From a virus, in IMG/VR virus record IMGVR_UViG_3300014202_001519: 64,000 bases of DNA. The stretch is one strand, 5' to 3'. This document shows positions 1 to 56,644 of the stretch, in pieces (position 1 is the first letter of the stretch; every line of letters starts with the position of its first letter). Both the position numbers and the translations under genes were made by a program. The notes beneath the pieces were generated by a model. The model worked only from the letters and a program-made list of their open reading frames with translations, ran no database searches and had not been told where the DNA came from.

Positions 1-103
1 ATTCACACTCAGGTTTCAGGTCGGCAACGCCGTATACAACTTCTTCTGGCAGGACAACATTACCCCGCGACTTAGACATTTTTTCGTATGCAGGTTGCGT
101 CAT
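1..103 (-). CDS. 5' part of an ORF with a class I aminoacyl-tRNA synthetase KMSKS motif (runs off the window)
   Basis: Manual translation from ATG at 103: MTQPAYEKMSKSRGNVVLPEEVVYGVADLKPECE. The frame is open upstream to an in-frame TAG at 173-175, so the start is uncertain. Confidence 0.45.
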   Translation of the reverse strand, partial: MTQPAYEKMSKSRGNVVLPEEVVYGVADLKPECE

Positions 104-3993: not shown

Positions 3994-4098
3994 GCAATTT
4001 CGCAGCAACACCCAACATGAGCTTTGCCGCAACTTCACAACAAAACACAAGCGACTTTACAGCAACTCCCGCTATGAGCTTTGCTGTAACATCACAAC
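3994..4098 (-). repeat. two 48-nt imperfect direct repeats (57-nt period), each forming a hairpin
   Basis: 3994-4041 aligns with 4051-4098. Minus-strand stems TTACAGCAA/TTGCTGTAA and TTGCGGCAA/TTGCTGCGA share an internal AGCTCAT. Confidence 0.7.
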
Positions 4099-4169
4099 GC
4101 TCCCTGCGGGATTCGAACCCGCAACGCACAGTTTTAGAGACTGCCGCTCTGCCATTGAGCTAAGGGAGC
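4098..4169 (-). tRNA. tRNA with CTA anticodon (amber suppressor)
   Basis: GCTCCCT-TA-GCTC AATGGCA GAGC-G-GCAGT CTCTAAA ACTGT-GCGTT-GCGGG TTCGAAT CCCGC-AGGGAGC-G: full cloverleaf, G73, no encoded CCA. Confidence 0.92.
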
Positions 4170-4175
4170 ATACCT

Positions 4176-6197: not shown

Positions 6198-7211
6198 CTA
6201 CAAAGTTTCACTTTGTAAAATCTCCCGCGAGAATTTCTCTACAAACAAATCAGCCAATTTAACAATGTCATCCTTCCTGTCTAATTCATCTTTAAGATGA
6301 GCAGGGAAGATTTCTTCGCCTCCTAATGCCCCTAATAAACCCCCAACTAAAGAAGCATTCGTGTCCGCATCACCGCCAACATAAGCGGCATCTATCATAC
6401 TCTGAATTTTAAACGGACTACGAATGAAAAAGGCATAAGAAATTGGTAGTGAGTTATAAACGTAGCAAGAGCCGCCGCCATACTCATTTACCAGATGCTG
6501 GTCATCATACAATAGTTTTGGGTTCTCGTATAATGGCAAAAGACCTTTAAGCCTGTCGGTCAGGTCATCTTTAATGGTTTCTGAGTAATAGCTACGACCT
6601 ACTTCACTTGCACGAATCAATTTTCGCAGAAATACCTTGGTGTCGAAGGTTTGTGGGGTCTTGCTTAGGCAGTCTAGTAAGGCGATTGTGTGAGCAAGAC
6701 AGGAACTTATCGCTATGCTAGTTTGATGGGTCATCGCGGTGAAATCAACCAGATTCTTTGTAAATCCAGTCAGATTTCCAGTTAAACCAAAATAGGCAGC
6801 AAGGGGCGATGCCTTCATGGGTACGCCATTGCCCAAGCCCCGCCGTTCATTTCCTTGGAAATCGCCAGACTCTTTCCAGCTAATCCCTTCCTTAAGTCTC
6901 TTACATGCTTCCCTAGTGGTTGATCCCCAACCACTAACTGTATCATCATAGGCAGCAATATGCTCTATAGCAACATGCCCCATATCAAATTCGCCAGCAC
7001 CTAGAATTGCTTTGGCTGTTGCAATAGTTAATTGGGTGTCGTCGGTCCAGCTTCCTTTCTTTTTCCAACGCCCACTTCTATAGTTTTCTCGTTTTTTTAC
7101 TTTTTTCACCACATCGTATGGCTTAGATTCGAAGGGCATTCCTAGTGCATCCCCAATTGCAACACCTAAGAACATCCCCCTAACCTTATCTTTGACATTC
7201 ATGTGTGGCAT
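6198..7211 (-). CDS. ADP-ribosylglycohydrolase (ARH/DraG family)
   Basis: GVAIGDALGMPFE, WTDDTQLT, GNGVPMKASP and GGDADTNASLVG. Confidence 0.93.
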   Translation of the reverse strand: MPHMNVKDKVRGMFLGVAIGDALGMPFESKPYDVVKKVKKRENYRSGRWKKKGSWTDDTQLTIATAKAILGAGEFDMGHVAIEHIAAYDDTVSGWGSTTREACKRLKEGISWKESGDFQGNERRGLGNGVPMKASPLAAYFGLTGNLTGFTKNLVDFTAMTHQTSIAISSCLAHTIALLDCLSKTPQTFDTKVFLRKLIRASEVGRSYYSETIKDDLTDRLKGLLPLYENPKLLYDDQHLVNEYGGGSCYVYNSLPISYAFFIRSPFKIQSMIDAAYVGGDADTNASLVGGLLGALGGEEIFPAHLKDELDRKDDIVKLADLFVEKFSREILQSETL

Positions 7212-11966: not shown

Positions 11967-12134
11967 TCAAAGATCAAAACTGGAGGCTTTAAGTCGCTCC
12001 AGAATTTGTTCCGCCTCTTCTTCACCCATGATACCAATAAGATTCATAAGAACGTCATCGGCATCCCCGCTACTCTTGCCTTCTTTGAAGAGGTTCTTAT
12101 ACTCTTCAAAGAAGGCAATTAGTTTTTCTTTCAT
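11967..12134 (-). CDS. hypothetical protein
   Basis: ATGA overlap with the PARP stop; MKEKLIAFF. Confidence 0.5.
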   Translation of the reverse strand: MKEKLIAFFEEYKNLFKEGKSSGDADDVLMNLIGIMGEEEAEQILERLKASSFDL

Positions 12135-13741
12135 GCTGCAAACTCCACCAAGTAACGCAACTGGTTTTGCTTGCCGTCGTAGATGATCCACTCATTGTTG
12201 ACCACGCCAGACTTGCCCGCCTTGCCGTAGACACAATGATGACCCTTCGGTGCCGACGTATAACCGCCGCACCCTGGAGCAACCCAAGGATTGCCCAAGA
12301 CAACATCGCACGCGAACATGAAAGCATCACGGCCACGAACCCCACCGTCACCAGCGGAGTAATAACCGCCGCGAAGACTGGTATAACCAGCCGACTTGCG
12401 CCAATCATCAGCGAAGTAACAGCCAGGGCCGAACATAGCGCCTGTAATCACTACGCCGACTAGCTGCTTGGGCAAACGAAGCCCTTCTCGCAAGATACCA
12501 GTAACATTAACGCTACGAGTACCGTGGAAAAGCAGAGCCGTATTCGTATCATGATAACGCTTAATCAAATCATTATCTTCAACATCCTGCCGTTCCTTTG
12601 GCTGGAATGGCGCACGTTCAGTAATACGGCATTTCTCTTTGAGAACCATATCCTGAGCGCCACTGACCTTATTTTGGTCCCCGTGGCGAGCGACCTTCCA
12701 CATGTTCTTAATCTTCATTTCGCCAACGCCATAATGACGATTGGCGGAAGCCTTTGGCCACCAATTGTATAGGAACTTACCAGTGGCCGAAGTTGGGTCG
12801 ATCCATTCCATTGCCAAAGGCATACCCTGGAATGGATCATTAACTTTATCATCCTTGACAGTATCATCATGCACATAAAGAGCCGCCTCGAACGCATCCA
12901 AGTCAGCGTTCCATAGCATGATGTTATTCTTGTTCAGAATCCAATCTTCGGCAGCACAGTGTAGAGCCTTCTTCTTTGGAATACGCGAATACATAACTCG
13001 CGTAAGCTGAACAAGCTCATTATCAGCAGCTTGCTTATCAACGCTGTCACCAACCTTAATAAGACGCTTCTGTGCTTCTTGAAGGATTTGACGACCTTCT
13101 TCGATTGACTTTTGGGTAGGCAACGAAGAGTCAGCCATCGCACCACGGGCATAAGACACCGTAGCGACGTTCAAATCCTTCATGAGACGCATGGTATGCG
13201 TATCAATAGAAGGCTTCCTGACAATGACTGATGGTGCGTCACCTTTAACTGCTGGTGCAGCGGGAGCCTTAGTGACCTTGGCCCCTTCATTCAACTTAAT
13301 CGTTTTGCCATCGGGCAGGCCAGTTGAACGGGTAGCCATAGGACGGACCAAATAACAATCCTTATTTGGCTTTGCGGTCAAAGTCTTAATGCCAGCGATG
13401 GTGGTCCACATGCCACGCTTATCGTTCTTGTCATGCAGTTGGTCAGCAAACTCCTGTTGAGCATCGCTTTCACCACTGCATTCTACGAATTGGAATTGGG
13501 GTGAAGTGGCACCAGTACGGCCCCACTCAAAATATGTATACCACTTCTTAGTCTTCCTATGCTGGACCACAGCGCCGTGGTAATATTTATTGCTGTCTTT
13601 ACCCGACTGATCGAAACAGCCAAGGTCAGCAATCTTACACTTATCAAACTGACCGTCTTCGGTAGCTGGCGGTCCAAAACACTGAAAATCGTCAGGACCA
13701 GAACCAGTTGGAAATTCGCTCTTACCTAGTTTAACGCCCAT
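12131..13741 (-). CDS. WGR-domain poly(ADP-ribose) polymerase (PARP)-like protein
   Basis: WGR (YFEWGRTG), helical regulatory region (YSRIP) and catalytic LLFHGT, GAMFGPGCYFAD, SAGY and NNEWIIY (H-Y-E triad). Confidence 0.9.
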   Translation of the reverse strand: MGVKLGKSEFPTGSGPDDFQCFGPPATEDGQFDKCKIADLGCFDQSGKDSNKYYHGAVVQHRKTKKWYTYFEWGRTGATSPQFQFVECSGESDAQQEFADQLHDKNDKRGMWTTIAGIKTLTAKPNKDCYLVRPMATRSTGLPDGKTIKLNEGAKVTKAPAAPAVKGDAPSVIVRKPSIDTHTMRLMKDLNVATVSYARGAMADSSLPTQKSIEEGRQILQEAQKRLIKVGDSVDKQAADNELVQLTRVMYSRIPKKKALHCAAEDWILNKNNIMLWNADLDAFEAALYVHDDTVKDDKVNDPFQGMPLAMEWIDPTSATGKFLYNWWPKASANRHYGVGEMKIKNMWKVARHGDQNKVSGAQDMVLKEKCRITERAPFQPKERQDVEDNDLIKRYHDTNTALLFHGTRSVNVTGILREGLRLPKQLVGVVITGAMFGPGCYFADDWRKSAGYTSLRGGYYSAGDGGVRGRDAFMFACDVVLGNPWVAPGCGGYTSAPKGHHCVYGKAGKSGVVNNEWIIYDGKQNQLRYLVEFAA

Positions 13742-17557: not shown

Positions 17558-17966
17558 TTTCCTTCTCCGTAATCCGTTTTATTAGTTCCACGCACTGTTC
17601 CTTGGAGAACATAGCTATATGAGCGTCTTTAGGTGATAATTCCATTATCTCTTGCAGAAACTTATAAGCCTGATTCCTATGTAGATTTTTCTTCTTCCAA
17701 TAAGAATCGAACTTTTCATGGGCTTCAATCCTTGCGATTTTAGTTTCTTTGTTAGCTGGAACCCCTAATGGATTGCCCTCAGGATCGGCACCGTGGGCAG
17801 CTTCACATAAAGGGTAGCGGGAACACCCATAAAACTTACGCGGACTACCATTTCGGTATGTAAACCTAGTGGTAGTCCGCAGCACCATGTATGCCCCGCA
17901 TTCAGGACAAGTTAAATTATGCAGCTTTCGTCTCCCCGACCAAAGGAATAAGTGATTTCTCTCCAC
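17550..17966 (-). CDS. topoisomerase-type zinc ribbon / DUF3268-like protein
   Basis: [24 protein letters not shown]...PLG.PA and RNQAYKFL. Confidence 0.75.
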
Positions 17967-19218
17967 GAACTACTTCGTCGGTGACAACAAAAGTCTGACC
18001 CTTCCCATCATCCAGGTTATATTGCAATTCAAGCATCAAGTCTTCGACCACACCACGCAATGCTCTTGCGCCAGTGTTGCCCTTCAAAGCTTTCTTTGCA
18101 ATTTCTCGAATGCCAGTATCCGAAAATTCGAGATTGATGTTGTGATAGCGAAACAGCTTCTTATACTGTTTGAGCAACGCACTCTTAGGCTCAGTCAAAA
18201 CCTTGACCAGTGCCTCTTCGTTCAACTCCTGTAGAGCCGTGATGATAGGCAGACGCCCAACAAACTCAGGGATAAGGCCGAAGTGAATCAGGTCATCAGC
18301 CGTCGTTTGAGCGAGCAGCCAATCACGCTCTTTCTTCTTATCAAGGTCATGCTCATCGACCTTAGCCCCAAAGCCGATGCTTCTCTTGCCGATTCGTCGG
18401 CCAACAATATCCTCAAGCCCCACAAACGCTCCACCGCAGATGAAGAGAATGTTCGTAGTATCAATCTGGATATATTGCTGTTCAGGATGCTTGCGACCAC
18501 CATGCGGCGGCACGTTGGCCAACGTACCTTCCAACATCTTGAGCAGAGCTTGCTGGACGCCTTCACCTGACACGTCACGGGTAATGCTGACGTTCTGGCT
18601 AGTCTTGCCGATCTTGTCGATTTCATCAATGTAAATGATGCCCGTCTGAGCGCGTTCCAAGTCGAAATCGGCAGCACGAATCAATCGTAGCAGCAAGTTT
18701 TCAACGTCTTCACCGACATAACCAGCTTCGGTCAAAGTGGTTGCGTCACCAATGGCGAAAGGAACATCAAGTGCCTTAGCCAGCTTTTGGCAAAGCAAAG
18801 TCTTTCCCGAACCCGTAGGACCAATGAGCAGGATGTTGCTCTTGTCGATTTCCACGTTATCAAGTGGATCACTAGATTCCTTTGCTCTCTTGATTTTGTC
18901 GTCGTCTACCAATCGTGTATAGTGGTTGTTTACGCCCACAGCAAGCACTTTCTTCGCTCTGTCTTGGCCAATTACATCTTGGCTAAGAAGCTCGAAAATA
19001 TGCTTCGGGCTTGGAATACGGGAAGGAACATGAACGGAACCAGCATTTTTTTGTCTCATAACGTTTGTGCAAATCTCCACACATTTTTTACAGATATAGA
19101 CAGGACTCTCGCCCACAGCTTTACCGTTGTTTGGACCACCTTGCCCCTCGACCATTCCTTCTTCTGAATTTCCGCAAAAATCGCAGAAGTAACGTACACC
19201 CTTTTTCTTTCTAGTCAT
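17917..19218 (-). CDS. clpX: ATP-dependent Clp protease ATP-binding subunit ClpX
   Basis: C4 zinc finger, [46 protein letters not shown] loop and GARALR. Confidence 0.97.
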
Positions 19219-37401: not shown

Positions 37402-38177
37402 ATCATCTTAATTAGTAGGCTTTTTAAATTTTTCTCCAATGTCTTTGTCGCTGGATGTGTCATCTTAAATATTCTTTTATTAGAAAAATTTGCTTTGTAA
37501 ATAGCATCGGTTGGGTCGAGTTTAACCCCCAAAAAGTCGGACACGTTTGCCAATACATACTCTGTAGAGTGTATCAAATCCTCGTAGGAAACGCTGAGAA
37601 AATCAACATTGCCTAGAAAATTATTCCAAATGGCACGGTACAAACACGCATCCTTCCAACACTGCATCAAAAGGGCAGCATCGGCTTCGACGTTAGACTG
37701 CGTATAATTGGATAAAGAGGTTTCATCGTAGATATGGTACTTCTTCGTTTGTCTGGCAACATAAATTGATATTGCATGAGCTACTTCATCATTTCTATAT
37801 AAATGGATAAATTTAATATCTGGCAGTAATGATTTTACATACTTTTGGTCATATTTCTTAACAGCCCAATCGTATTTCTCCAATTCATAAAAATCTGCAT
37901 AAAATCCAGGTCGATAACGATTGGCATTTGGAATCGCCGCTATAACTTCAATGTATTGATGATAGATAACTTTACAGTACGGCGGGACAAATCGCTCGAA
38001 CTCGATTCGATTGTTAAACAATCTTAACCACTCATTGAACGCAAGTCCTTGCTGAATTGGTCCTTTCTTATCACTTAAAAGAGGATGGTTGTATGCTTTA
38101 AACAAACCACTATTATTCAAGAGTTCGCAAAGATAACTAGAGCCAGTCCTGGGAGTACATAAAATCCAACATGTCAT
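37398..38177 (-). CDS. Stf0-family sulfotransferase
   Basis: PRTGSSYLCELL, FIHLYR..VAHAIS and VSYEDL. Confidence 0.82.
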   Translation of the reverse strand: MTCWILCTPRTGSSYLCELLNNSGLFKAYNHPLLSDKKGPIQQGLAFNEWLRLFNNRIEFERFVPPYCKVIYHQYIEVIAAIPNANRYRPGFYADFYELEKYDWAVKKYDQKYVKSLLPDIKFIHLYRNDEVAHAISIYVARQTKKYHIYDETSLSNYTQSNVEADAALLMQCWKDACLYRAIWNNFLGNVDFLSVSYEDLIHSTEYVLANVSDFLGVKLDPTDAIYKANFSNKRIFKMTHPATKTLEKNLKSLLIKMI

Positions 38178-39013
38178 AAAATGGACCTACAATACTCGGT
38201 TAAAGATTTTTGAGGACGCCAATTGAGCATTTCGACAGTCTTATTTATATCAGCCAAGGTGTCGCGTGCTTCCCCTGGACGCGCAGGAATGTATTGAACT
38301 TCTGAATTATTGAACATTTTAGCAACCTCATTCAAAGAATAGTTAATGCCACTGCCCAAATTAAATACTTCACCTTTCCACTCCGCTTCCGACATGGCAA
38401 TTAAGCCACTGACTATATCATCAACATGAGTAAAATCCCGCCGCTGTTCCCCGTCACCAGTAATTGTTAAAGGCTGCTTGTTATGATACTGCCGCTCCCA
38501 AATACCAATGACAGTAGAATAATCACCTTCCCCAATCTGTCTCGGCCCATAAACGTTGAAAAACCTTGCAATCGCCGTAGGGACACCATAGATGTGACTA
38601 TACAGTTTGCAACATTCTTCCCCAGCGTGCTTGAAGAAAGCGTAAGGATTCAGATATATGCCACCGTAGAATGTACTGGACCCAGCGTAAACAATTTTGG
38701 ACCTGTGGCGTCTGGCAAATTCTAACATCACCATCGTACCAGTGGAATTTGCCAGATAAGTTTCAAAAGGTTGTTCGAAGCTAGGTTGTATCCTTGCCAG
38801 TGCCGCCAGGTGGAAAATTATATCTACCTTCTCAACTGGAACGTGCGGCAATTTTTCTACCTTCCCTTCCAAGAACGTTGCTTTAGGATTGAGATTCTCC
38901 ATCTTTCCAGTAGAAAGGTTGTCGAGTACATAAACAGTGTGGTCTTGATCTATAAGTCTGTCCACTAGATGACTACCAATAAATCCACCACCGCCAGTCA
39001 CAAGTATATTCAT
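38174..39013 (-). CDS. NAD-dependent epimerase/dehydratase
   Basis: TGGGGFIGSHL, HLAA, YAFFK (YxxxK), RFFNVYGP and RDFTHVDD. Confidence 0.93.
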   Translation of the reverse strand: MNILVTGGGGFIGSHLVDRLIDQDHTVYVLDNLSTGKMENLNPKATFLEGKVEKLPHVPVEKVDIIFHLAALARIQPSFEQPFETYLANSTGTMVMLEFARRHRSKIVYAGSSTFYGGIYLNPYAFFKHAGEECCKLYSHIYGVPTAIARFFNVYGPRQIGEGDYSTVIGIWERQYHNKQPLTITGDGEQRRDFTHVDDIVSGLIAMSEAEWKGEVFNLGSGINYSLNEVAKMFNNSEVQYIPARPGEARDTLADINKTVEMLNWRPQKSLTEYCRSIL

Positions 39014-39069
39014 AATTTGCCCATAAATATTATAATAACAACATGGAAAATATTGCACTATATTAATCC

Positions 39070-40002
39070 ATGAACATCCTAGTAGTTCCAACAATCAGAG
39101 AGAATTGCCTTAAAAACTTCTTACATGCTTGGAGATTTGAAGTTTTTGATAAGATAGTTGTTGTAGAGGATAATCCAACTATAACCTTTCATACAGACTC
39201 CGTATACCACTTTTCATGGCAAGAAATAGAAGAGGAATGGGGAGAGAACAGTTGGATATTTTCAAGACGAGATAGTGCTATTCGTTCATTTGGCTTCTGG
39301 AAAGCCTACCAACTAGGTGCCGAAGTCATTTACACCCTGGACGACGACTGCTATCCAATACCAGATGAAGCCTATCTTCATACCCACCTATTTAACCTGG
39401 AAGAAACCTGTAAATGGGGGGAATTGATCGTTGGTCTAAGAACCAGAGGACTTCCCTACTACAACATGGGCACACTACCAGTCGTCGCCAATGTAGGATT
39501 ATGGACAAATATTCCAGACCTGGATGCTATTAATCAGATTGCTAATCCAATTATAGACTTTCAACCAGATGTAAAAGAGAACAGGGTAATGCCACATGGC
39601 CAATACTTCCCATTTACTGGCATGAACTTCTGTTTCAAAAGGGAAGTTGCGGTAATGGCCTACTTCCCTTTAATGGGAGAAGGTCAACCTTATAGAAGGT
39701 TTGATGATATCTGGTTCGGCATTATATTCAAGAAGGTGTGTGACCACTTAGGTTATCATATTACGGTGGGGCATCCCTTTGTAGAGCATCGTAAAGCGAG
39801 TCACCCATTGGTCAATTTGGTCAAGGAAGCTCCTGGCATCCAAGCAAATGAGACTTTTTGGGAAGTGGTCGATAAGATCAAGCTGACCTGTAAAACCCCC
39901 AAGGATTGCATGTTTGAGATTGGTGAAGGGTTATACAATGAAAATGATGCTTATGTTAAGAAGTTGGGGCAGGCCGTGACGATTTGGGCTGAACGGTTTT
40001 AA
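39070..40002 (+). CDS. reversibly glycosylated polypeptide (RGP)/UDP-arabinopyranose mutase family
   Basis: SAIRSFG, TLDDDC, RGLPY, GLWTNIPDLDA, GMNFCF, YFPLMGEGQP.RRFDDIW, CDHLG and HRKAS.PLVNL. Confidence 0.85.
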   Translation: MNILVVPTIRENCLKNFLHAWRFEVFDKIVVVEDNPTITFHTDSVYHFSWQEIEEEWGENSWIFSRRDSAIRSFGFWKAYQLGAEVIYTLDDDCYPIPDEAYLHTHLFNLEETCKWGELIVGLRTRGLPYYNMGTLPVVANVGLWTNIPDLDAINQIANPIIDFQPDVKENRVMPHGQYFPFTGMNFCFKREVAVMAYFPLMGEGQPYRRFDDIWFGIIFKKVCDHLGYHITVGHPFVEHRKASHPLVNLVKEAPGIQANETFWEVVDKIKLTCKTPKDCMFEIGEGLYNENDAYVKKLGQAVTIWAERF

Positions 40003-40383: not shown

Positions 40384-40815
40384 TTAACTTGAATAAATCC
40401 CTCGCACTTTATTCAAAATATCCTGAAAGACAGGGTTATTAAACTCGGTCTTATCCTTCTTTGGGGCGTGGACCTTTCTATGGCAGTTGGCGCATAAAAC
40501 AGCACATTTTAGCATTTCATCAATTATTTCAGAAATATTCATGTTACGGTTGCACATCGCTGCAACCGTAAGTCTTTTCTCATTAAGGTGGTGAAACTCC
40601 AGACAATCAGGATCACGCTCAGGACATTTAGCACATCCAAACATCGACTTCAATTCATCTACAAGCTTTTTAATGTCCTTTTTTCTTTTCTGTCTATTAC
40701 GGACATACTGCGGGTCTTTGTCCGCTCTCATGCGGTAATAAGCCCTAGCGCGAGAGTTAACTTTATCTCTATTCAATTTATTATAACTTTGTTGATATTC
40801 TTTATTATAATTCAT
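40384..40815 (-). CDS. HNH endonuclease
   Basis: CAKC...LEFHH...KCAVLCANCHRKVH. Confidence 0.8.
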   Translation of the reverse strand: MNYNKEYQQSYNKLNRDKVNSRARAYYRMRADKDPQYVRNRQKRKKDIKKLVDELKSMFGCAKCPERDPDCLEFHHLNEKRLTVAAMCNRNMNISEIIDEMLKCAVLCANCHRKVHAPKKDKTEFNNPVFQDILNKVRGIYSS

Positions 40816-41725
40816 ACCTTCTCATGACCTCTTTTATTTCAGCAAGAGCATTTTTATGTTTATCTGGTATCTCAACACAGCCCTTGAGCGATCCGTAATG
40901 ATAGTCAAGGCATTCCAGCAACAGCTTCTTAATCTCTTCCTTGCGAGGCTTTGCTGGAAGTTCACATTTACTGTAAAGAGCTTCTAGTTGCCTTTCCTTA
41001 TCCGAGGCCCACTTACGAATTTCAGCTTCGGGCATTTCGCCACGGCGAATAGCCTTTAGCTGCTCATTATTAAGCCGCAAATCCATTGAACCAGTGGTCA
41101 GGATTTGTTCGCATTCATTGAGAAGGCGAACAAGATGGTATCCGAATTTAACATCGAACCCAAACTCCTCCCGAATCTTTTTACGCTTACCAGTGGGCTT
41201 CTTGCTAGTCATCTTATGAAGCTGACTGTAAGCGTAATTTTTGAAGTTGGCATAGCAACCCTTGTGTAAGAAAACTTCCCTATTTTCTCTTACAAGATTA
41301 CCAACATAGGTCGAATGCAATACACACTCCTGCGGAGTGTAAATGCTGTCAATAATGTTGGGGTTATTGTCAATCAAAAGGTCGAAGTATCTCACGATAT
41401 TAAAGATCGTGAAGTCATACTCGCGGCCCTTGCCACCTAGCGCACTCTCATCGACAACGCCGTGCTGCTGCCACTGTGCGAAAATCTCTGGTTCGTCACC
41501 AAAACCAACCTTGAACTCATGCTTCACAGGCACAAAGATTACGCCGCCTAAATGGGGAAACACTGTTTCCTTCTTAGGGATGGCAAAACCGTAAATGTCC
41601 ATGTCACTTGTATCACTGGACACGCCGTAAGCCACACTACCCATAATAGTTAGGTAATGAGTGTTGGTTGGCAACCAGTCTGGCGGTTTAATGAGTTGTT
41701 TGTCTACTAAGTCTTGAAGGATCAT
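40805..41725 (-). CDS. DNA polymerase beta-superfamily nucleotidyltransferase
   Basis: GSVAYG.S..TSDMDIYG, NPNIID, YAYSQ and KFGYHLVRLL. Confidence 0.82.
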   Translation of the reverse strand: MILQDLVDKQLIKPPDWLPTNTHYLTIMGSVAYGVSSDTSDMDIYGFAIPKKETVFPHLGGVIFVPVKHEFKVGFGDEPEIFAQWQQHGVVDESALGGKGREYDFTIFNIVRYFDLLIDNNPNIIDSIYTPQECVLHSTYVGNLVRENREVFLHKGCYANFKNYAYSQLHKMTSKKPTGKRKKIREEFGFDVKFGYHLVRLLNECEQILTTGSMDLRLNNEQLKAIRRGEMPEAEIRKWASDKERQLEALYSKCELPAKPRKEEIKKLLLECLDYHYGSLKGCVEIPDKHKNALAEIKEVMRRYEL

Positions 41726-41737
41726 ATATCCTCCTTT

Positions 41738-42565
41738 CTACATGCATTCTTGCCTGAATTTGGCCCCTGTCATGATGGGCCGATAGAACATAGACGCAGT
41801 TTCATGGACACGCTTCAATAAATTCATGTTCGTGGCCAATTGTTTCCTGTCTAAATCAAAATAGATGTTATCTTCCAGCCCAATCCTGACGCCACCACCC
41901 ATTGCGATTGCAGCGGTTGTAACTGGTAACTGAGCGTCACCAATGCCACCAAAGGCCCATGTACTACGTTCTGGAAGCTGTTTAATGGCAATGCCCATCT
42001 CAGCTAGATCGGCTTGCATTCCAAAGACATTACCAAAGATCAGATTGAAGTAATAGGGGAATTTAACCAATCCCTTATTCATCAGATATTTGGCTCCATT
42101 AATCATGCCCAAATCGAAAACCTCAAGCTCTGGCATGACCTTATATTCTTGCATTTTCTTTGCCAGCTTGAGTATCATTTCAGGGGCATTCATACTGGCT
42201 TCTCTGGCAAAGTTTAGGCTACTAAGCGTCAAGGAAGCCATATCTGGCTTCAATTCTATGGGTTCAGAGCGTTTCTCAAATTCAGGAGACTTGCGACCGC
42301 TTAATGACAAGCAGATAATCAAATCTGGACAATACCGCCTTACCCCATCGTATATTTTGAAATATACGTTCTTGTCGGATGTAGGCGCACCTTCATCGTC
42401 ACGGGCATGTAAATGCGCAATGGTGATTCCATATTCATATGCCTGATGCACTTCCTCGATAATCTCGGTAGGCGAAATCGGCACATGCGGAGTCATTACC
42501 TTGGTCGGCACCATCCCCGTTGGTGTAAAATTGACGATTAACTCTTTCAAGACACCAGCCCTCAA
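41738..42565 (-). CDS. beta-keto acid cleavage enzyme (BKACE/Kce, DUF849)
   Basis: PTG, VPISPTEI, AHLHARD, PDMASL, ELEVFDLG and GGGVRIGLEDN. Confidence 0.9.
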   Translation of the reverse strand: MRAGVLKELIVNFTPTGMVPTKVMTPHVPISPTEIIEEVHQAYEYGITIAHLHARDDEGAPTSDKNVYFKIYDGVRRYCPDLIICLSLSGRKSPEFEKRSEPIELKPDMASLTLSSLNFAREASMNAPEMILKLAKKMQEYKVMPELEVFDLGMINGAKYLMNKGLVKFPYYFNLIFGNVFGMQADLAEMGIAIKQLPERSTWAFGGIGDAQLPVTTAAIAMGGGVRIGLEDNIYFDLDRKQLATNMNLLKRVHETASMFYRPIMTGAKFRQECM

Positions 42566-48638: not shown

Positions 48639-51542
48639 TCATGGGCTTACAAAGCTTTGTGACGAAGAGATAACTGGAGTCACACACTTCAAGACGCCAG
48701 ACCACACAAACAAGAACCAACACAGGCAGTCATCTGGAGTATAGGCTGTAACTACATTCGGTGGTCCACTTGGGCCACAATTACAAATTGCGGAGTGAGC
48801 AGGTAAAAATTCAGTCTTCACATGCATCAAGTTTCCAACATTAGGATTGAAGTAACTTGGGAATGGTGGCAATGGCACACCATTCATGAAGAAAAAGTCT
48901 GCATACTGACTCTGTGCGTCACCTACCGCTGTTGCAATTTTAGGCTTCCAGGTATATTTGGTATTCCATGAAACACTGTATTCGTTACTACCGCCAATCG
49001 TATCTGGCTCGCAACCAACACACTTGAGAAGCTTGGCACCATGCCATATTATAATCTCTCTTGTCTCACTCTCAGTAACCGTTCCACTAACTGGAACGCA
49101 ACAATGCTGTCTAGGTCTGGTAATAACCTGTGGACCTGTATCGTATATGACTAGCAACGCAATACCTTGTCCACCACAACAACCTGGGTAGTGAGGTGAA
49201 TCGGAAGCTGCATAAGCAATCGCAGAGCTTGGTTCTACACCTGGAAGCGATATTAAATAAGTACCAGAGCCAGGAACTAAAGCTGTTACATCCTGCCACC
49301 AAACCTTGTTTAGTAAGTTGTTGTCTTCTTCCAAATCACCATGATCGCTACCATCAGCGGAACAGAAAGCTGACCAGCAAGTATTGCCACAACAGCCAAT
49401 AATATCGCCAGGCACCTCTACATCGTTAAATATAGCAGTATCAGGGCAATTGTCAGCACCGCCAATTGTGTTCCAGTATAAATAAGCCTTGATAACAGGC
49501 CCAGGAACAGTAATGGTGATCGGAGCAGGGAATATATTTGTATACTCATCCCTTATACCAACACCTTCAAGCACAAAGTCTACATTTCCAACTACACGAT
49601 CATACTGATAAAGTTGGTCGAATGGTGCTTCTGCGTGACAGGCGTTTGGACCGCAATCACTTGGCTCGCAAATAAGTGGGTAAGTTACACCAACATATAA
49701 GAACCAACACAAACAGTCATCTGGAGTAGCTCCTTCAATGAAATTGGAGCCAGCTTGCATTTCAACCAAATGCTCATTTAAATGCAACAAATTCCCAAAA
49801 TAAGGATTGGCATAACTTCCAGCGGCATTTTGCGGCAATGGATTACCATTCCACGAAAAATTATCACCGTAAAGCGTCTGAGCATCGCCAATGCCTAAAA
49901 CGATTCTAGTACAACCTGTCTGTTCTGCATCTATTGGGCCAACGTCAACCGTATAAGTGTCGGTGCCACCATAAGTGGCTGCTAGTGAGGCTGGAACCAA
50001 AAGAACCGATCCATCAAAGACCTGCAAGTGTTTTAGACCACAAGGCGAATCATAAATAATAAGCAATACAACGCCTTGGCTACCAGCACAACCTGGGAAG
50101 TGTGGTGTATCAGAAGCCAGGAAAGCAATTAACGGATCAAGGATAATATTCGGTATGGTTATAGATGAATTGAAAGTACCGCCCGTTGGTACAGCCGCCT
50201 GTACTTGGGCTGTTACATCGGCACGATATACTTTGTTCTTAATGCCTGGATTGAATCCAGTATCAGCTAGTCCGCAATAATTAGGTGGCGACCAACAGGT
50301 GTCACCAACTGGATCAAATGCTACAGTGTCAACCCCATCTACAGTATAAGGAGTACCATTTAAAATAATGGTATCTGTGGTCACGTTATCATCTGTGATA
50401 ACGTTCCAGTATAGGTAAGCTTCAAGTGGTGCGCCAGGAACGCCAGTGTTGAATACTACTGGCGTACTAGCTATATCTAAGTCTCTAGTGCCCCTGCCAT
50501 TAACTACATAGTCATAATTACCTGTCAAGTCCTTAAAGGCAGCTAGACTGCCAGCGTCAAGCAACACATCATCACAGGCAACCTGTTCTTCACCGCAATA
50601 AACAAACAAAAACCAACATAGGCATTCCGTTCCACCTACAACGCTCATGGTGCCTAGATTACCAGTTTCAAAGGCACAAGCATTGAGAGCAATAGTAGTG
50701 TTTAGTAGATTTGGACCAGTTGGACCACCACCATTAGGATTAATCGCACTGCCGAATGCATTTTGCGGCAAACAGAAACCGTTAAAGCAGAAAGAATCGC
50801 CATAATCAGTTTGTGCATCACCTGCCGCCAATGCTATTTTAGGATTGGTTAAGTAAACGCCAGCATCAAAGTTTACAGTATAGGAAGGAGTGCCACCGAA
50901 AATGCTTCCAGATGGAGCTAATAACTTGGCACCTTCCATCACCTGTATTTCACGATTTATAAGCGTGCCATCATTATAAACAACCAATAACGCAACACCT
51001 TGACTACCAGCACAAGTTGGATAATGTGCTGAATCAGAACCATTAAAAGCAATGCTGTCTATGCCAGTAGCTGTTACGATACCTGGAAGTCTAACAGAAA
51101 AGGTGTTTGAACCAGCTAAAAGCCCCGCTGCAACATCAGTTGTTACATCAGTAGCATAAACTCGATTGTATATATCTTGAAGAGTAGTCGCCCCGTCATT
51201 ACCTGAGCCGTTCCCTTCGGCAAGCCAACAGGCGTCATTACACCAGCCAATCAAGGTTGTTCCTAAAGAAGAAAATCCACCACCATTAACATCAAAATCA
51301 ACAGTTGGGAAGACGACAGGATGTTCTACTAAGATGTTAGTGTAAAGAGTTGCATTAACTATAATAGCGCCAGAGGGGATGGTTAGAGTAATCTCAGCAG
51401 GCGTAATATTTGTGTCGAAATCTCTAGTGCCAGCACCACCTAATACAAAATTCTGGCCTGGGCCACTATATGTGGCGACAGGCGTACTCGATAATAGGTC
51501 AAATAACGGCGCAGGCGGTGGTGTTCCAGGCGTACAAGCCAT
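48639..51542 (-). CDS. 967-aa protein with three ~300-aa Cys-containing repeats (putative surface/virion protein)
   Basis: three copies each of GxRD, AYLYWN-like, QG..LL..Y, GDAQ.xY.D and CLCWFL. Confidence 0.75.
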   Translation of the reverse strand: MACTPGTPPPAPLFDLLSSTPVATYSGPGQNFVLGGAGTRDFDTNITPAEITLTIPSGAIIVNATLYTNILVEHPVVFPTVDFDVNGGGFSSLGTTLIGWCNDACWLAEGNGSGNDGATTLQDIYNRVYATDVTTDVAAGLLAGSNTFSVRLPGIVTATGIDSIAFNGSDSAHYPTCAGSQGVALLVVYNDGTLINREIQVMEGAKLLAPSGSIFGGTPSYTVNFDAGVYLTNPKIALAAGDAQTDYGDSFCFNGFCLPQNAFGSAINPNGGGPTGPNLLNTTIALNACAFETGNLGTMSVVGGTECLCWFLFVYCGEEQVACDDVLLDAGSLAAFKDLTGNYDYVVNGRGTRDLDIASTPVVFNTGVPGAPLEAYLYWNVITDDNVTTDTIILNGTPYTVDGVDTVAFDPVGDTCWSPPNYCGLADTGFNPGIKNKVYRADVTAQVQAAVPTGGTFNSSITIPNIILDPLIAFLASDTPHFPGCAGSQGVVLLIIYDSPCGLKHLQVFDGSVLLVPASLAATYGGTDTYTVDVGPIDAEQTGCTRIVLGIGDAQTLYGDNFSWNGNPLPQNAAGSYANPYFGNLLHLNEHLVEMQAGSNFIEGATPDDCLCWFLYVGVTYPLICEPSDCGPNACHAEAPFDQLYQYDRVVGNVDFVLEGVGIRDEYTNIFPAPITITVPGPVIKAYLYWNTIGGADNCPDTAIFNDVEVPGDIIGCCGNTCWSAFCSADGSDHGDLEEDNNLLNKVWWQDVTALVPGSGTYLISLPGVEPSSAIAYAASDSPHYPGCCGGQGIALLVIYDTGPQVITRPRQHCCVPVSGTVTESETREIIIWHGAKLLKCVGCEPDTIGGSNEYSVSWNTKYTWKPKIATAVGDAQSQYADFFFMNGVPLPPFPSYFNPNVGNLMHVKTEFLPAHSAICNCGPSGPPNVVTAYTPDDCLCWFLFVWSGVLKCVTPVISSSQSFVSP

Positions 51543-53774: not shown

Positions 53775-53974
53775 AGGTATTTAGATAAGATATCTCGAAT
53801 CTTACCCTTCAATGCATTCCAAGGACTAGCGTTGAGTTCTTCTTCTATCTCAGAAACCATTTCCTGATAGTCTTGGACTATAGAAATTAGTTCTTCATTA
53901 GTCAATTCAGTCAATTGCTTCTGCATAAAAATGGGGAGCGTAGTAATGCGAGTCACTACGCTCCCCGCCCCCAA
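53771..53974 (-). CDS. hypothetical protein
   Basis: 67-aa ORF; start uncertain. Confidence 0.35.
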   Translation of the reverse strand: MGAGSVVTRITTLPIFMQKQLTELTNEELISIVQDYQEMVSEIEEELNASPWNALKGKIRDILSKYL

Positions 53975-53977
53975 CTT

Positions 53978-54787
53978 TTAGGCAACCTTCTTCAATTCCT
54001 TGAAGATTTCGGTCAAGGAACGCTGGTCAGGCTGCTGTGCCAGAACAGGAGTCTGGATGCCATGCTTGATAGCATAACCCCTGAATTGCTGTTCATTATT
54101 CAGGATCATGAGGTATCTCATGATTAAGCTATCGGTTGGTGGGAAACCACCTTGTAGGACCACACACAATCGCTCTGTTAGTTTACCACTGTCATAGACA
54201 TTGGTAAACGCACTTCCTGGGAAGATTTGGTACATCAAGCCGCTTTTTGCCCTAACCGAGACAGAGCCTCGTCGGACAAAATCCTTGAACTTATCTTCAC
54301 CAAGAACCCTACGCAACGTCTCCCGTGCCCGTTGCTCACGCACATCACTGGCATAACCCAATGGTACGCGATTAGTAAGCACACCTGGAGCCATTCTGTG
54401 ATGCAGAATGTCCTTGAGACGTTCCGCCGCAGACTTTTGTGGTGAAAGCCATAGGGCGGTATTACCATAAGTATAAGTAACGGTATCCGCACCACCACGA
54501 TAAACTCGCAGCGTATAGCCGCCTGTTGGCTCATATCGCCACGTTGTCGGCATATCCAGCGTTGCATACTCGGAGTATTGCATTTCAATAACTGTGGAAG
54601 CAGCAGTGCTGTTTGCCCAATTATTGGCTGGATAAGTATTACTTGTGGCGGTCGGCCATTGTTGAATGCGATACTGTATTCCGCCAGTAGTCACATTGCC
54701 ATCAGTTATAGTATTGGTATTAGTGTCTACATTACAATAGACACTTGTTCCCTCGCCATAACTGATTGTGGGACAATATCCTACCAT
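53978..54787 (-). CDS. hypothetical protein (low-complexity N-terminus; C-terminal domain with RLC motif)
   Basis: EQRARETLRRVLG...MYQIFPG...RLCVVL.GGFPPTD. Confidence 0.6.
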   Translation of the reverse strand: MVGYCPTISYGEGTSVYCNVDTNTNTITDGNVTTGGIQYRIQQWPTATSNTYPANNWANSTAASTVIEMQYSEYATLDMPTTWRYEPTGGYTLRVYRGGADTVTYTYGNTALWLSPQKSAAERLKDILHHRMAPGVLTNRVPLGYASDVREQRARETLRRVLGEDKFKDFVRRGSVSVRAKSGLMYQIFPGSAFTNVYDSGKLTERLCVVLQGGFPPTDSLIMRYLMILNNEQQFRGYAIKHGIQTPVLAQQPDQRSLTEIFKELKKVA

Positions 54788-54789
54788 TG

Positions 54790-55152
54790 TTAACCTCCTG
54801 CCACTTGGTTAATTGGCATGAAGATAACTTCTTCGGCTTCAGGATCAAATTCATCCATCACTTCTGCCGAAGCTCTGCCGTCAGTGCCTACACGATAAGG
54901 CACTAGACCCTTGGCAACGCATTCATCAAACATTGCCTTGGCATCTTCAATCTGATCCATGTCGCGGGAGTCCCATACGACACGCTTATCCCCATCCTTG
55001 GGAGTAAGGATACGAAAACAGCGTTCCCACCTACTTGTCTTCTCACCATCCTTGAGAAACCGAAGTCTCTCAGGTTTAGTGATAGTGTCCTTGAGGTTGC
55101 TGTTCTTGATAAGCGCAACTTCAATTTCATTTTCGGCAATTGCAGTCGCCAT
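54790..55152 (-). CDS. hypothetical protein ending in di-glycine
   Basis: GDKRVVWD...EFDPEAEEVIFMPINQVAGG-stop. Confidence 0.6.
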   Translation of the reverse strand: MATAIAENEIEVALIKNSNLKDTITKPERLRFLKDGEKTSRWERCFRILTPKDGDKRVVWDSRDMDQIEDAKAMFDECVAKGLVPYRVGTDGRASAEVMDEFDPEAEEVIFMPINQVAGG

Positions 55153-55799
55153 TACTTCTTTCCTTTCGGTTTGGATTTCTTGGCAGCCTTCCTATTCGCT
55201 GCCTTGACGATATCGGCGGGCACTAAAGAAAATGCATTACCTTCTTGGCTAAATTCATCAAGGAATGCGTTCCATTCATCAAGGAATGCTTCAAAATCAT
55301 CGTGTAGGTCGCCATGAATGCCAGCGACTTCACTGCATAAGTCGGACATTACACAGTCGATTTGCTCTTGAACATCTTTGCCAATTCCACCGCAATCTTT
55401 GGGATTAAGCAACGTGCCGCTGCATTCGGTGCCGAAAACATCGCAAACGGATTGCGACCAACGATTTTGCAGCAGTTCGTCAAACAAGATGGGAGTTATA
55501 TCCACGTCCATTTTGACGCGGAGAGTGACGCTCTTAGTCTTGTTACAGCGGGCGGCAAGCTTATCGAACTTCTTCCTTAATTCTTCGATGCGGCCAAGGT
55601 ACTTCCCGCCACCCTTTTCACACTTAATCCATTCCTTTTTAGCTTCGCTAGCTTCGTTGGCCTTACGGCTTTCGATAGCAGCCTTAACATCACTGTCAAG
55701 GCTAAGCAACTCGGTGTAGGTCAAAGCTTTTAGATCAGTAGTCATAGCGGTAGTTCCTTTCAAAAAGTTATTCGCCTTCAGCACGTCCGTAAATTTCAA
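55152..55799 (-). CDS. hypothetical protein
   Basis: 215 aa with basic tail. Confidence 0.5.
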   Translation of the reverse strand: MKFTDVLKANNFLKGTTAMTTDLKALTYTELLSLDSDVKAAIESRKANEASEAKKEWIKCEKGGGKYLGRIEELRKKFDKLAARCNKTKSVTLRVKMDVDITPILFDELLQNRWSQSVCDVFGTECSGTLLNPKDCGGIGKDVQEQIDCVMSDLCSEVAGIHGDLHDDFEAFLDEWNAFLDEFSQEGNAFSLVPADIVKAANRKAAKKSKPKGKK

Positions 55800-56127
55800 T
55801 CCAGCGTTCGCGGAAAAAGTTATCCCTGGCTAGGTCTTCGCTGGACCTGATAATTGCACCATCCCTTGCATGGGACGTTTTCTGCATTTTTTTAGTTATT
55901 GGTTCTTTGCTACAAGCGGATTTAAGGGGCATGATATCTTCTACAGGGTCGCCATTAGAAAAACGGCCATCTTCTACAATTTGACCCTTTTTGATACAGC
56001 GTTGGTGTCTATGATGGCACATTGGGCATTCAACCCAAACTGTCCTATCATATTCCATATTAAGACGGAATCGGATATAAGTTTGGCATTCGCCACAATA
56101 CCATTCTTGAAAAATCTTATCGTCCAT
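55768..56127 (-). CDS. zinc-ribbon hypothetical protein
   Basis: CGEC...CPMC; probable start MDDKIF. Confidence 0.5.
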   Translation of the reverse strand: MDDKIFQEWYCGECQTYIRFRLNMEYDRTVWVECPMCHHRHQRCIKKGQIVEDGRFSNGDPVEDIMPLKSACSKEPITKKMQKTSHARDGAIIRSSEDLARDNFFRERWIEIYGRAEGE

Positions 56128-56188: not shown

Positions 56189-56644
56189 TCACTTCTTCTT
56201 AGTGAACGTATTGATTTTTTCCCAAGCTTCACCAAACGCAGCGGCGGCGATATTGATTATAACATCCACGCCATTCTCGTCAAGCACAGTCTGAATGGTA
56301 AGTCTGGTTTTGAAATGTGGGTCAATCCAGACCCAAGTACCAGGCTCATTGCGCAACTTGTCCCACATCTTCCACCACGTTGCATTAGGGACCGCTGCCT
56401 TTAGCTTATTGGTATCATCGTGGACATGCACCTCGCCCTTGCTCTCATGGATGCGATAAGCGCCGATGCTAGTCTTTTCGCTTCTGCCGCTCTTTACCTT
56501 GACTTCGCTTTTTTCCTTTTCCACTGTTGTTTCTCTTTCGCCGCCCATTCTTAGCCTCCTCATTAAGTCTTTCACGAACCTGTAAAGGATGGACACCAGC
56601 TTCATAGTCTCGATCCGATATCTCAGAGAGTTGTTCTTGAGCAA
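56189..56644 (-). CDS. hypothetical protein
   Basis: 151-aa ORF; start uncertain. Confidence 0.5.
   Translation of the reverse strand: MLKNNSLRYRIETMKLVSILYRFVKDLMRRLRMGGERETTVEKEKSEVKVKSGRSEKTSIGAYRIHESKGEVHVHDDTNKLKAAVPNATWWKMWDKLRNEPGTWVWIDPHFKTRLTIQTVLDENGVDVIINIAAAAFGEAWEKINTFTKKK

Follow-up and report, generated by a model that had tools for sequence, protein, structure and literature searches.

Genes at the locus

The stretch of viral DNA considered here, called the window (64,000 nucleotides (nt); IMG/VR record IMGVR_UViG_3300014202_001519), carries on its minus strand two adjacent genes, P0001 for a putative ubiquitin-like protein (Ubl) that ends in Gly-Gly (GG) and P0002 for a larger partner protein. 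An earlier note on this DNA had described a protein of 120 amino acids (aa) ending PINQVAGG-stop and, 2 nt downstream, a 269-aa gene with the motif RLCVVL..GFPPTD, and had read them as a possible conjugation pair. The description is exact. As set out below, the pair is a real, strongly co-evolving couple of a Ubl and a UBC-like protein, and it lies inside a new four-gene cassette of huge phages. The features of the pair and its immediate surroundings are as follows.

54790..55152, minus strand: Ubl gene P0001, an open reading frame (ORF) of 120 aa ending PINQVAGG
54794..54799, minus strand: Shine–Dalgarno (SD) sequence AGGAGG of P0002, inside the Ala-Gly-Gly codons GCA GGA GGT of P0001 and 6 nt before the ATG at 54787
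53978..54787, minus strand: partner gene P0002, an ORF of 269 aa, with its ATG at 54787 after a 2-nt spacer (CA) following the P0001 stop
54443..54787, minus strand: N-terminal domain of P0002 (aa 1-115), rich in Thr, Asn, Tyr, Trp and Gly
53978..54442, minus strand: conserved C-terminal domain of P0002 (aa 116-269 and the stop), of alpha-beta4-alpha topology in the model
53933..53966, minus strand: terminator-like hairpin with a 14-bp stem and 8 G-C pairs, followed by ATTTTTAT; a pattern match only

The stop codon of P0001, read from the sequence, is TAA at 54790-54792, and the hairpin starts 12 nt past the stop codon of P0002. As modelled, P0001 begins with a three-strand extension (aa 1-40), continues with a predicted beta-grasp core (aa ~41-113) and finishes in a free tail with the ending QVAGG. 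The motif RLCVVLQGGFPPTD is present in the partner; aa 205-220 read ERLCVVLQGGFPPTDS and include Cys208, whose codon lies at 54164-54166, while the C-domain motif GxFPPTD occupies aa 213-219.

The Gly-Gly tail of the Ubl

A homologue search of P0001 over 5.8 billion proteins returned 125 relatives, all of them on contigs from metagenomes or huge phages, the longest of 623 kb, and endings were scored in the 120 that were listed. GG ends 113 of these, AG three and RGGSL one, the remaining three being cut by contig ends. The terminal Gly is universal in full-length homologues and the penultimate residue is Gly in ~93%, with A, K or P in its place occasionally (endings AG, KG and PG). The GG is retained in homologues down to 45% identity, and conservation of the protein sequence extends over the entire tail, AEEVIFLPxxxVxGG. 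Across the homologues compared, an ending of this kind is far beyond chance. Short homologues of 86 aa consist of the core alone and lack the N-terminal extension. A single homologue, P0040 (140 aa, on a 286-kb contig), has residues past the Gly-Gly (...RGGSL), like a precursor needing trimming.

The Ala-Gly-Gly codons of P0001 double as the ribosome-binding site of P0002, a point that the earlier note had overlooked. The presence of AGGAGG within the Gly-Gly codons raises a rival explanation, namely that the GG is a by-product of the ribosome-binding site of the downstream gene, or chance. In the window the site is perfect, 6 nt ahead of the ATG; among first Gly codons GGA is the most frequent; and an SD-like motif is found in the tail codons of 33 of the 48 loci where the partner lies within 25 nt, compared with 2 of the 12 other loci. 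The DNA fetched for 60 distinct GG-ending loci speaks against this origin, however, as 12 different codon pairs encode the GG, including GGT GGC and GGC GGC. Furthermore, all 12 loci with no partner inside 25 nt, or with one at an unknown distance, keep the GG, 10 of them having no SD-like motif, and the tail motif preceding it is conserved as protein. The Gly-Gly is therefore selected as amino acids, with the ribosome-binding site riding on them. From codon usage, an origin of the GG in the ribosome-binding site is effectively refuted, and we regard it as extremely improbable.

The partner protein

The first search with P0002 returned 432 relatives, and a profile of the C-domain extended these to 1,634 clusters at 50% identity. 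The C-domain has 25 invariant columns, among them Cys208, G213, F215, P216, T218 and D219. Neither Cys208 nor the PPTD varies in 120 homologues, in any fetched locus or in Virus Rctr197k at ~30% identity; the cysteine is retained even in a distant paralogue of that virus. No covariation was found between the variant Ubl tails (AG, KG and PG) and the partner loop. The N-terminal domain is quite different in character, being hypervariable in sequence and in length (~50 to 190 aa among homologues), and its model has a predicted local distance difference test (pLDDT) score of only ~50.

The paralogue in Virus Rctr197k is P0484 (locus L002, 6249-6986). It keeps the RARE.L, G..Y.I, LCV and PP motifs of the partner C-domain, has a different N-terminal half and is not preceded by a Ubl gene. 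The record of the same virus has an annotated CRISPR array 1.2 kb upstream of its Ubl gene.

A four-gene cassette of huge phages

The two genes are closely linked in practically all loci where the flanking sequence is long enough to show it. With the Ubl as seed, 23 of 25 viral contigs have a homologue of the partner C-domain just downstream, and of 70 metagenome loci seeded with the partner alone, nearly all that have enough upstream DNA carry a GG-ended Ubl directly upstream. Overlap of start and stop codons is common in the latter loci. Conservation of the terminal GG, of the cysteine and of gene adjacency, by which the earlier note had proposed to judge the pair, is therefore found on all three counts.

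The unit that is conserved is not a module of two genes, as the earlier note had supposed, but one of four. From gene order across these loci, the Ubl and its partner are the 3' half of a co-directional cassette, often translationally coupled, that runs geneA, zinc ribbon, Ubl, E2-like protein. The remaining genes in this part of the window are the following.

56189..56548, minus strand: geneA, the first cassette gene, of ~119 aa, with a conserved N-terminal MGG and the motif R.HE..GEVHFHDD
55768..56127, minus strand: zinc-ribbon gene, with probable start MDDKIFQEW and 119 aa; the longest possible ORF extends up to 56235
55152..55799, minus strand: ORF of 215 aa, probably a coiled coil, between the zinc-ribbon and Ubl genes

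The zinc-ribbon protein has the conserved motif QEFYCGxC ... CPxCxHxHxR, and its gene is found upstream of the Ubl in 57 of the 58 loci with at least 1.5 kb of upstream DNA. The gene for the small, His-rich geneA product is found in 53 of these 58. The four cassette families are the only gene families that recur around the pair. Apart from the window, only locus L006 has a homologue of the 215-aa ORF, in the corresponding position, and the sole family match of this ORF is a weak one to a PHROG annotated 'head scaffolding' (E 0.004); judged by this occurrence, it is lineage-specific and stands outside the conserved cassette. The best sigma-70-like match of the region (window 56256-56283, minus strand; 11 of 12 positions, with an extended -10 TG) falls within geneA, ahead of the start of the zinc-ribbon gene; promoter-like sites are in total no more numerous than expected by chance.

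Uncultivated huge phages carry the cassette in ~1,600 sequence clusters. Among 185,579 species genomes, a single one has the family, on a 38-kb contig of a metagenome-assembled genome (MAG) of the Pirellulales, where the pair is present without the zinc-ribbon gene and without geneA. With this single occurrence, the cassette is in effect confined to phages.

Known families account for none of it. Neither P0001 nor P0002, the latter as a whole protein or as the C-domain, has a Pfam family at E up to 1, and PHROGs and PADLOC hold no family for any of the four cassette proteins. The zinc-ribbon protein has no family match above any cut-off; geneA has no match in Pfam, PHROGs or PADLOC and no usable one in the ESM Atlas. 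Searches of the ESM Atlas by features and by shape gave only unnamed viral and bacterial clusters. Against the sequences of the PDB, the profile of the partner C-domain found no match, and that of the Ubl family found only designer pentatricopeptide repeats, an artefact caused by a 22-residue helix motif summed over the repeats. In BFVD the matches were the orthologue from Rctr197k, a paralogue and, from the cultured jumbo phage Atu_ph07, a protein of 397 aa (probability 0.95, E 0.12). When profiles built from the Ubl and partner alignments were run over the complete genome of Atu_ph07, neither gave a match, and divergent members used as tblastn queries revealed no cultured phage with the families; none is known. 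No description of the cassette was found in the literature searched.

Predicted folds

The model of P0001 has a mean pLDDT of 75.9 and shows a core of order b-b-a-b...b in residues 41-120. Its structural matches are almost all beta-grasp proteins, namely Raf-RBD, PB1, NEDD8, UFM1, SUMO, TtuB and MoaD. They are weak, with a best Foldseek E of 0.03 and VIA Z scores of at most 4.1, among which is 4g0n_B with a root-mean-square deviation (rmsd) of 3.2 over 68 aa. MoaD (1fm0_D) aligns from end to end, residues 43..120 of the model with 1..81 of the chain (Z 2.8, rmsd 3.4, 65 aa).

The partner is modelled with a pLDDT above 90 over aa 145-269, where two helices are accompanied by four strands and further helices. 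Cys208 stands at the end of strand 4 and is the first position of the loop between strand 4 and helix 2. The fold was searched with VIA by exhaustive alignment to 48,161 chains, for which the typical background Z is 7-8. The best chain is Ubc9 (4y1l_C; Z 5.1, rmsd 3.1, 82 aa). There follow five RWD domains, 2daw (Z 4.3, rmsd 3.7, 85 aa), 7e2k (Z 4.2), 2yz0 (Z 4.1), 2ebm (Z 4.0) and 2day (Z 3.7), as well as E2S (1zdn_A; Z 3.7, rmsd 4.0, 93 aa) and the UEV domain of VPS37A (Z 3.7); FANCL is likewise among the matches. A chain of a bacterial E1-E2-Ubl complex, 8tz0_C, aligns with Z 2.8 and rmsd 4.8 over 77 aa. Foldseek of the full partner model against the PDB gave only noise, as the N-terminal half is poorly modelled. 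For the beta-grasp and E2 folds, against which the earlier note had proposed a Foldseek comparison, the matches agree in kind, to beta-grasp proteins for the one gene and to Ubc9, RWD and UEV domains for the other, but they are weak, and the models are suggestive of a UBC/RWD-like fold in the partner C-domain.

Predicted complex of the Ubl and its partner

Co-folding of the partner C-domain with the Ubl gave an ipSAE of 0.81 (runs of 0.74, 0.81 and 0.83), with 0.00 for the best of three controls. In the benchmark of this procedure, the mark was reached by 58 of 80 solved complexes and by 2 of 110 mismatched pairs. The runs share at least 84% of their contacts, the pLDDT of the partner is at least 81 and the interface is large, with ~90-100 contacts. 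The sheet of the Ubl lies on helix 2 (residues 219-231) and helix 1 (149-163) of the partner, and the Ubl tail (residues 116-120) contacts partner residues 208-216, the loop that opens with the invariant cysteine. A complex of the Ubl with an E2-like protein, with the tail placed at Cys208, is thus well supported as a prediction. Covalent conjugation of the Ubl, to which the co-fold does not speak, is tentatively inferred. P0001 and P0002 may be taken, as a preferred but tentative reading, for a cognate pair within the four-gene cassette in which the Ubl tail is passed through Cys208 of a UBC/RWD-type partner.

Activating enzymes and peptidases in the relatives

A carrier of this kind would be activated by an E1 enzyme. 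The earlier note saw no E1 in the window, and this holds: tblastn with the E1 proteins of two relatives found nothing, and the only hit of an E1 hidden Markov model in the six-frame translation (38174..39094, 9.5 bits) is actually an NAD-dependent sugar epimerase. In the relatives the picture is mixed. A ThiF is found in 5 of 23 cassette-bearing viral records, and in 4 of the 7 of those that are at least 90% complete; it is absent from 18 of the 23. In one locus (L018) a full-length MoeB-like ThiF with CxxC motifs lies directly beside the pair, in a second (L103) a short ThiF and a JAB lie ~4 kb from it, and in LR756511 (595 kb) a short ThiF and a Prok-JAB, separated by 0.8 kb that includes other ORFs, lie ~59 kb away. 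The genomic linkage of an E1 to the pair was considered and is not beyond chance for genomes of such size. When the E1 of a relative was used as the query, none of the best 120 of 2,269 matches lay on the 623-kb contig.

The short ThiF-type E1 (~217 aa) belongs to a family of 2,269 relatives and is accompanied by a Prok-JAB within a few kb in the huge phages of L003 (1414-3339, LR756511), in L103 (12318-13434, where the two genes overlap), in L107/L034 (G001) and in L108/L036 (G010). No GG-ended Ubl was found beside it in LR756511 (L003) or in L103, and its substrate could be the Ubl described here.

Does the partner act as an E2?

The chemistry would proceed in steps of unequal support. The terminal Gly of the Ubl would be adenylated by a ThiF-type E1 encoded elsewhere, or else by the MoeB or ThiF of the host. 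The Ubl would then dock on helix 2 and the Cys loop of the partner, a docking that the co-fold supports, and its tail would be handed to Cys208 as a thioester. More speculatively, the hypervariable N-terminal domain of the partner might pick the target, and the zinc-ribbon protein and geneA might serve as an adaptor or E3-like factor, or as the substrate.

Several findings weigh against such a role. Cys208 is one of the 25 invariant columns of the partner and so is not uniquely conserved. All the structural matches are weak, the highest Z of 5.1 being below the background of 7-8, and unrelated small alpha+beta folds (CCDC61, SAS-6 and KTSC) score Z 4.3-4.9 against the partner, so that the label 'UBC/RWD-like' is suggestive only. 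Neither protein is matched by the Pfam models for E2 (UQ_con and Prok-E2), ubiquitin or ThiS. The partner has no His-Pro-Asn (HPN) motif, and its conserved turn FPPTD (residues 215-219) comes after the cysteine, not before it. The loop past strand 4 is short, as in non-catalytic RWD domains; with its FPPTD it looks, in the model, more RWD-like than E2-like. Moreover, the 64-kb window has neither an E1 nor a JAB, ThiF and Prok-JAB both went undetected in two near-complete cassette-bearing relatives (364 kb and 494 kb), and an E1 is found within 9 kb of the pair in only two fetched loci (adjacent in one), with one more at ~5.5 kb. E1 and JAB are not among the four families that recur around the pair. 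As the E1 is outside the conserved unit, any enzyme that activates the Ubl tail is not in the module and may be that of the host.

These findings lend weight to a different explanation, in which the two proteins form a non-covalent heterodimer and the partner is a catalytically dead, RWD/UEV-like adaptor that clamps the Ubl tail, the GG and the cysteine being conserved only for packing. Such a heterodimer, which might also include the zinc-ribbon protein and geneA, would use the variable N-terminal domain for assembly, for regulation or for recognising the host. The short loop from strand 4 to helix 2, with its FPPTD, resembles the YPxxxP turn that is a feature of RWD domains, and the five RWD matches at Z 3.7-4.3, the missing HPN and the lack of E1 and JAB both in the cassette and in the two near-complete genomes all fit. 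The predicted interface needs no covalent bond, and the composition of the N-terminal domain is typical of surface or receptor-binding domains. Nevertheless, a strict last Gly with a penultimate Gly almost as constant is the pattern of E1-activated carriers and would be unusual for a structural tail, the cysteine survives in a distant paralogue with no neighbouring Ubl, and in one genome an E1 stands directly beside the pair. A purely non-covalent partnership is the next most likely reading after E2-like transfer, though less likely than not.

Of the readings considered, passage of the Ubl through Cys208 in the manner of an E2 is the most likely, although our confidence in it is limited. Of the earlier proposal, the idea of a conjugation pair keeps the conserved GG, the cysteine, the adjacency of the genes and the predicted placing of the tail at the cysteine, but the 'minimal conjugation module' is not supported, as the conserved unit includes no E1, the two near-complete relatives lack ThiF and JAB, and HPN is absent.

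Comparison with known systems

The bacterial operons Bil (E1, E2, JAB and Ubl), type II CBASS (Cap2/Cap3) and Bub, used in antiphage defence, resemble the cassette, as predicted from its models, in a small beta-grasp protein with a reactive C-terminal Gly beside a protein of UBC-type fold, and genes for E1 and JAB of the same superfamilies occur in some of the related phages. These systems are host-encoded, however, whereas the cassette is encoded by phage. Their operons include an E1 and a peptidase; the cassette includes neither, and some of the genomes that carry it lack both. In comparison with their E2, the partner lacks HPN, has no match to an E2 model and has a hypervariable N-terminal domain, and there is no counterpart in them of the zinc ribbon and His-rich protein of the cassette. 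Bub is reported to work through oxyesters (PMC11601596).

The phage proteins could also be directed at these host pathways. In this anti-defence reading the pair would be a decoy that mimics components of the Bil, type II CBASS or Bub of the host and jams or diverts these pathways. Bacterial Ubl pathways act in antiphage immunity (PMC10557695, PMC10097602, PMC11601596), the fast-evolving N-terminal domain suggests an arms race, and the short ThiF and JAB proteins of the relatives match the CBASS E1-E2 and JAB models in PADLOC. Neither the Ubl nor the partner matches any PADLOC model, though, and the C-domain and the Ubl are extremely conserved over ~1,600 clusters in a fixed four-gene cassette, whereas anti-defence genes are typically patchy. 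A decoy is thus improbable.

The sulfur carriers ThiS, MoaD, TtuB and Urm1 share with the Ubl, as modelled, a beta-grasp core of ~75 aa that ends in a hydrophobic strand and xGG. The end-to-end alignment of MoaD and the MoeB-like E1 beside the pair in one genome add to this likeness. The Ubl differs in that it is not a member of these families by sequence (Pfam) and has no sulfur-using enzyme nearby, and most of its homologues add the N-terminal three-strand extension; the partner, furthermore, is E2/RWD-like in its model and does not have a synthase fold. It may nonetheless be asked whether the Ubl is a carrier of the ThiS/MoaD/TtuB type, thiocarboxylated at its terminal Gly by an E1, with a partner that uses or relays the sulfur (as a Cys208 persulfide), for example in tRNA or cofactor modification in a tRNA-rich phage. 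MoaD and TtuB are both among its structural matches, its tail EEVIFLPxxxVxGG resembles those of MoaD and ThiS, the E1 in L018 is full-length and has the CxxC motifs, and the genome invests heavily in tRNA biology. Yet no PP-loop ATPase, MoaE, ThiG, rhodanese or cysteine desulfurase is found in or near the cassette, and the hypervariable N-terminal domain would be hard to explain in a biosynthetic enzyme. MoaE is not among the 50 partner matches listed, although a relation is still compatible with this. Sulfur transfer appears as improbable as the decoy.

A phage precedent is the tail assembly protein I (TAPI) of phages lambda and T1, a ThiS/MoaD-like beta-grasp Ubl with a conserved C-terminal Gly and a predicted Cys-dependent partner (Iyer, Burroughs and Aravind 2006; PMC1779556). 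The Ubl of TAPI continues into a Gly-rich linker and a further domain, from which it must be cleaved, and the gene adjoins TAPK (JAB and NlpC/P60) in the tail cluster (PMC1779556). Both Ubls are encoded by phages and have a conserved C-terminal Gly on a beta-grasp fold, which in P0001 is a prediction. The Ubl described here, in contrast, ends naturally at its GG, its partner has a different fold, and its neighbours are a zinc ribbon and an E2-like protein rather than a peptidase, there being no JAB or NlpC matches in Pfam. No virion or tail gene family recurs around the pair.

With RWD and UEV domains, finally, the partner shares, in its model, the alpha-beta4-alpha topology and a short Pro-containing turn (FPPTD) after strand 4. 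It is set apart from them by the invariant cysteine at the start of the loop in P0002, by genetic coupling to a GG-ended Ubl and by the predicted lie of the Ubl tail on that loop in the co-fold. In its operon and in its motifs, the cassette belongs neither with Bil, CBASS and Bub nor with ThiS/MoaD nor with TAPI/TAPK.

Other features of the window

The phage ClpX of the earlier note is present as a ClpX-like AAA+ unfoldase (17917..19218, minus strand; AAA_2 and a ClpX zinc finger). It stands 35 kb away from the pair, which it does not accompany in other genomes. WGR and PARP catalytic domains are combined in a 536-aa protein (12131-13741, minus strand); together with a separate ADP-ribosylglycohydrolase (6198-7211, minus strand) it looks, from the domains, like a phage writer and eraser pair for ADP-ribosylation.

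A tRNA with a CUA anticodon (an amber suppressor, labelled Pyl by ARAGORN) is encoded at 4097-4170 on the minus strand; the genes of the window stop normally at TAA, TAG and TGA. Between 35257 and 40002 there is a glycan-modification cluster with an NAD-dependent epimerase/dehydratase, a sulfotransferase and a PLOD-type glycosyltransferase, within which a protein like the reversibly glycosylated polypeptides (RGP) is encoded on the opposite strand. Close by, 40805-42565 encodes a BKACE enzyme and an RlaP nucleotidyltransferase. A 967-aa Cys-rich protein (48639-51542, minus strand) has three similar repeats, each with a weak DUF3344 match.

Implications

To our knowledge, Ubl conjugation in bacteria has so far been found as antiphage immunity of the host (Bil, type II CBASS and Bub) or as sulfur transfer. 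It is possible, though with more doubt than attaches to the transfer through Cys208 itself, that huge phages carry a Ubl tagging system of their own, built from new families. In such a system the Ubl would be charged onto the invariant cysteine, the N-terminal domain of the partner would pick host or phage targets, the zinc-ribbon and His-rich proteins would act as co-factors and the E1 would be borrowed, from a phage ThiF or the MoeB or ThiF of the host. If true, this would be the first Ubl/E2-type system that we know of as a lineage-wide feature of bacteriophages, and a mirror image, in viruses, of the pathways by which bacteria defend themselves through Bil, CBASS and Bub.

If the chemistry is real, phages would themselves be tagging proteins, two or more new families would join the ubiquitin toolbox, and both the targets and the way in which the tail comes to be activated when no E1 is dedicated to it would become objects of search. 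A non-covalent complex would still provide a structural hypothesis, open to test, for four core genes of huge phages that are so far uncharacterised.

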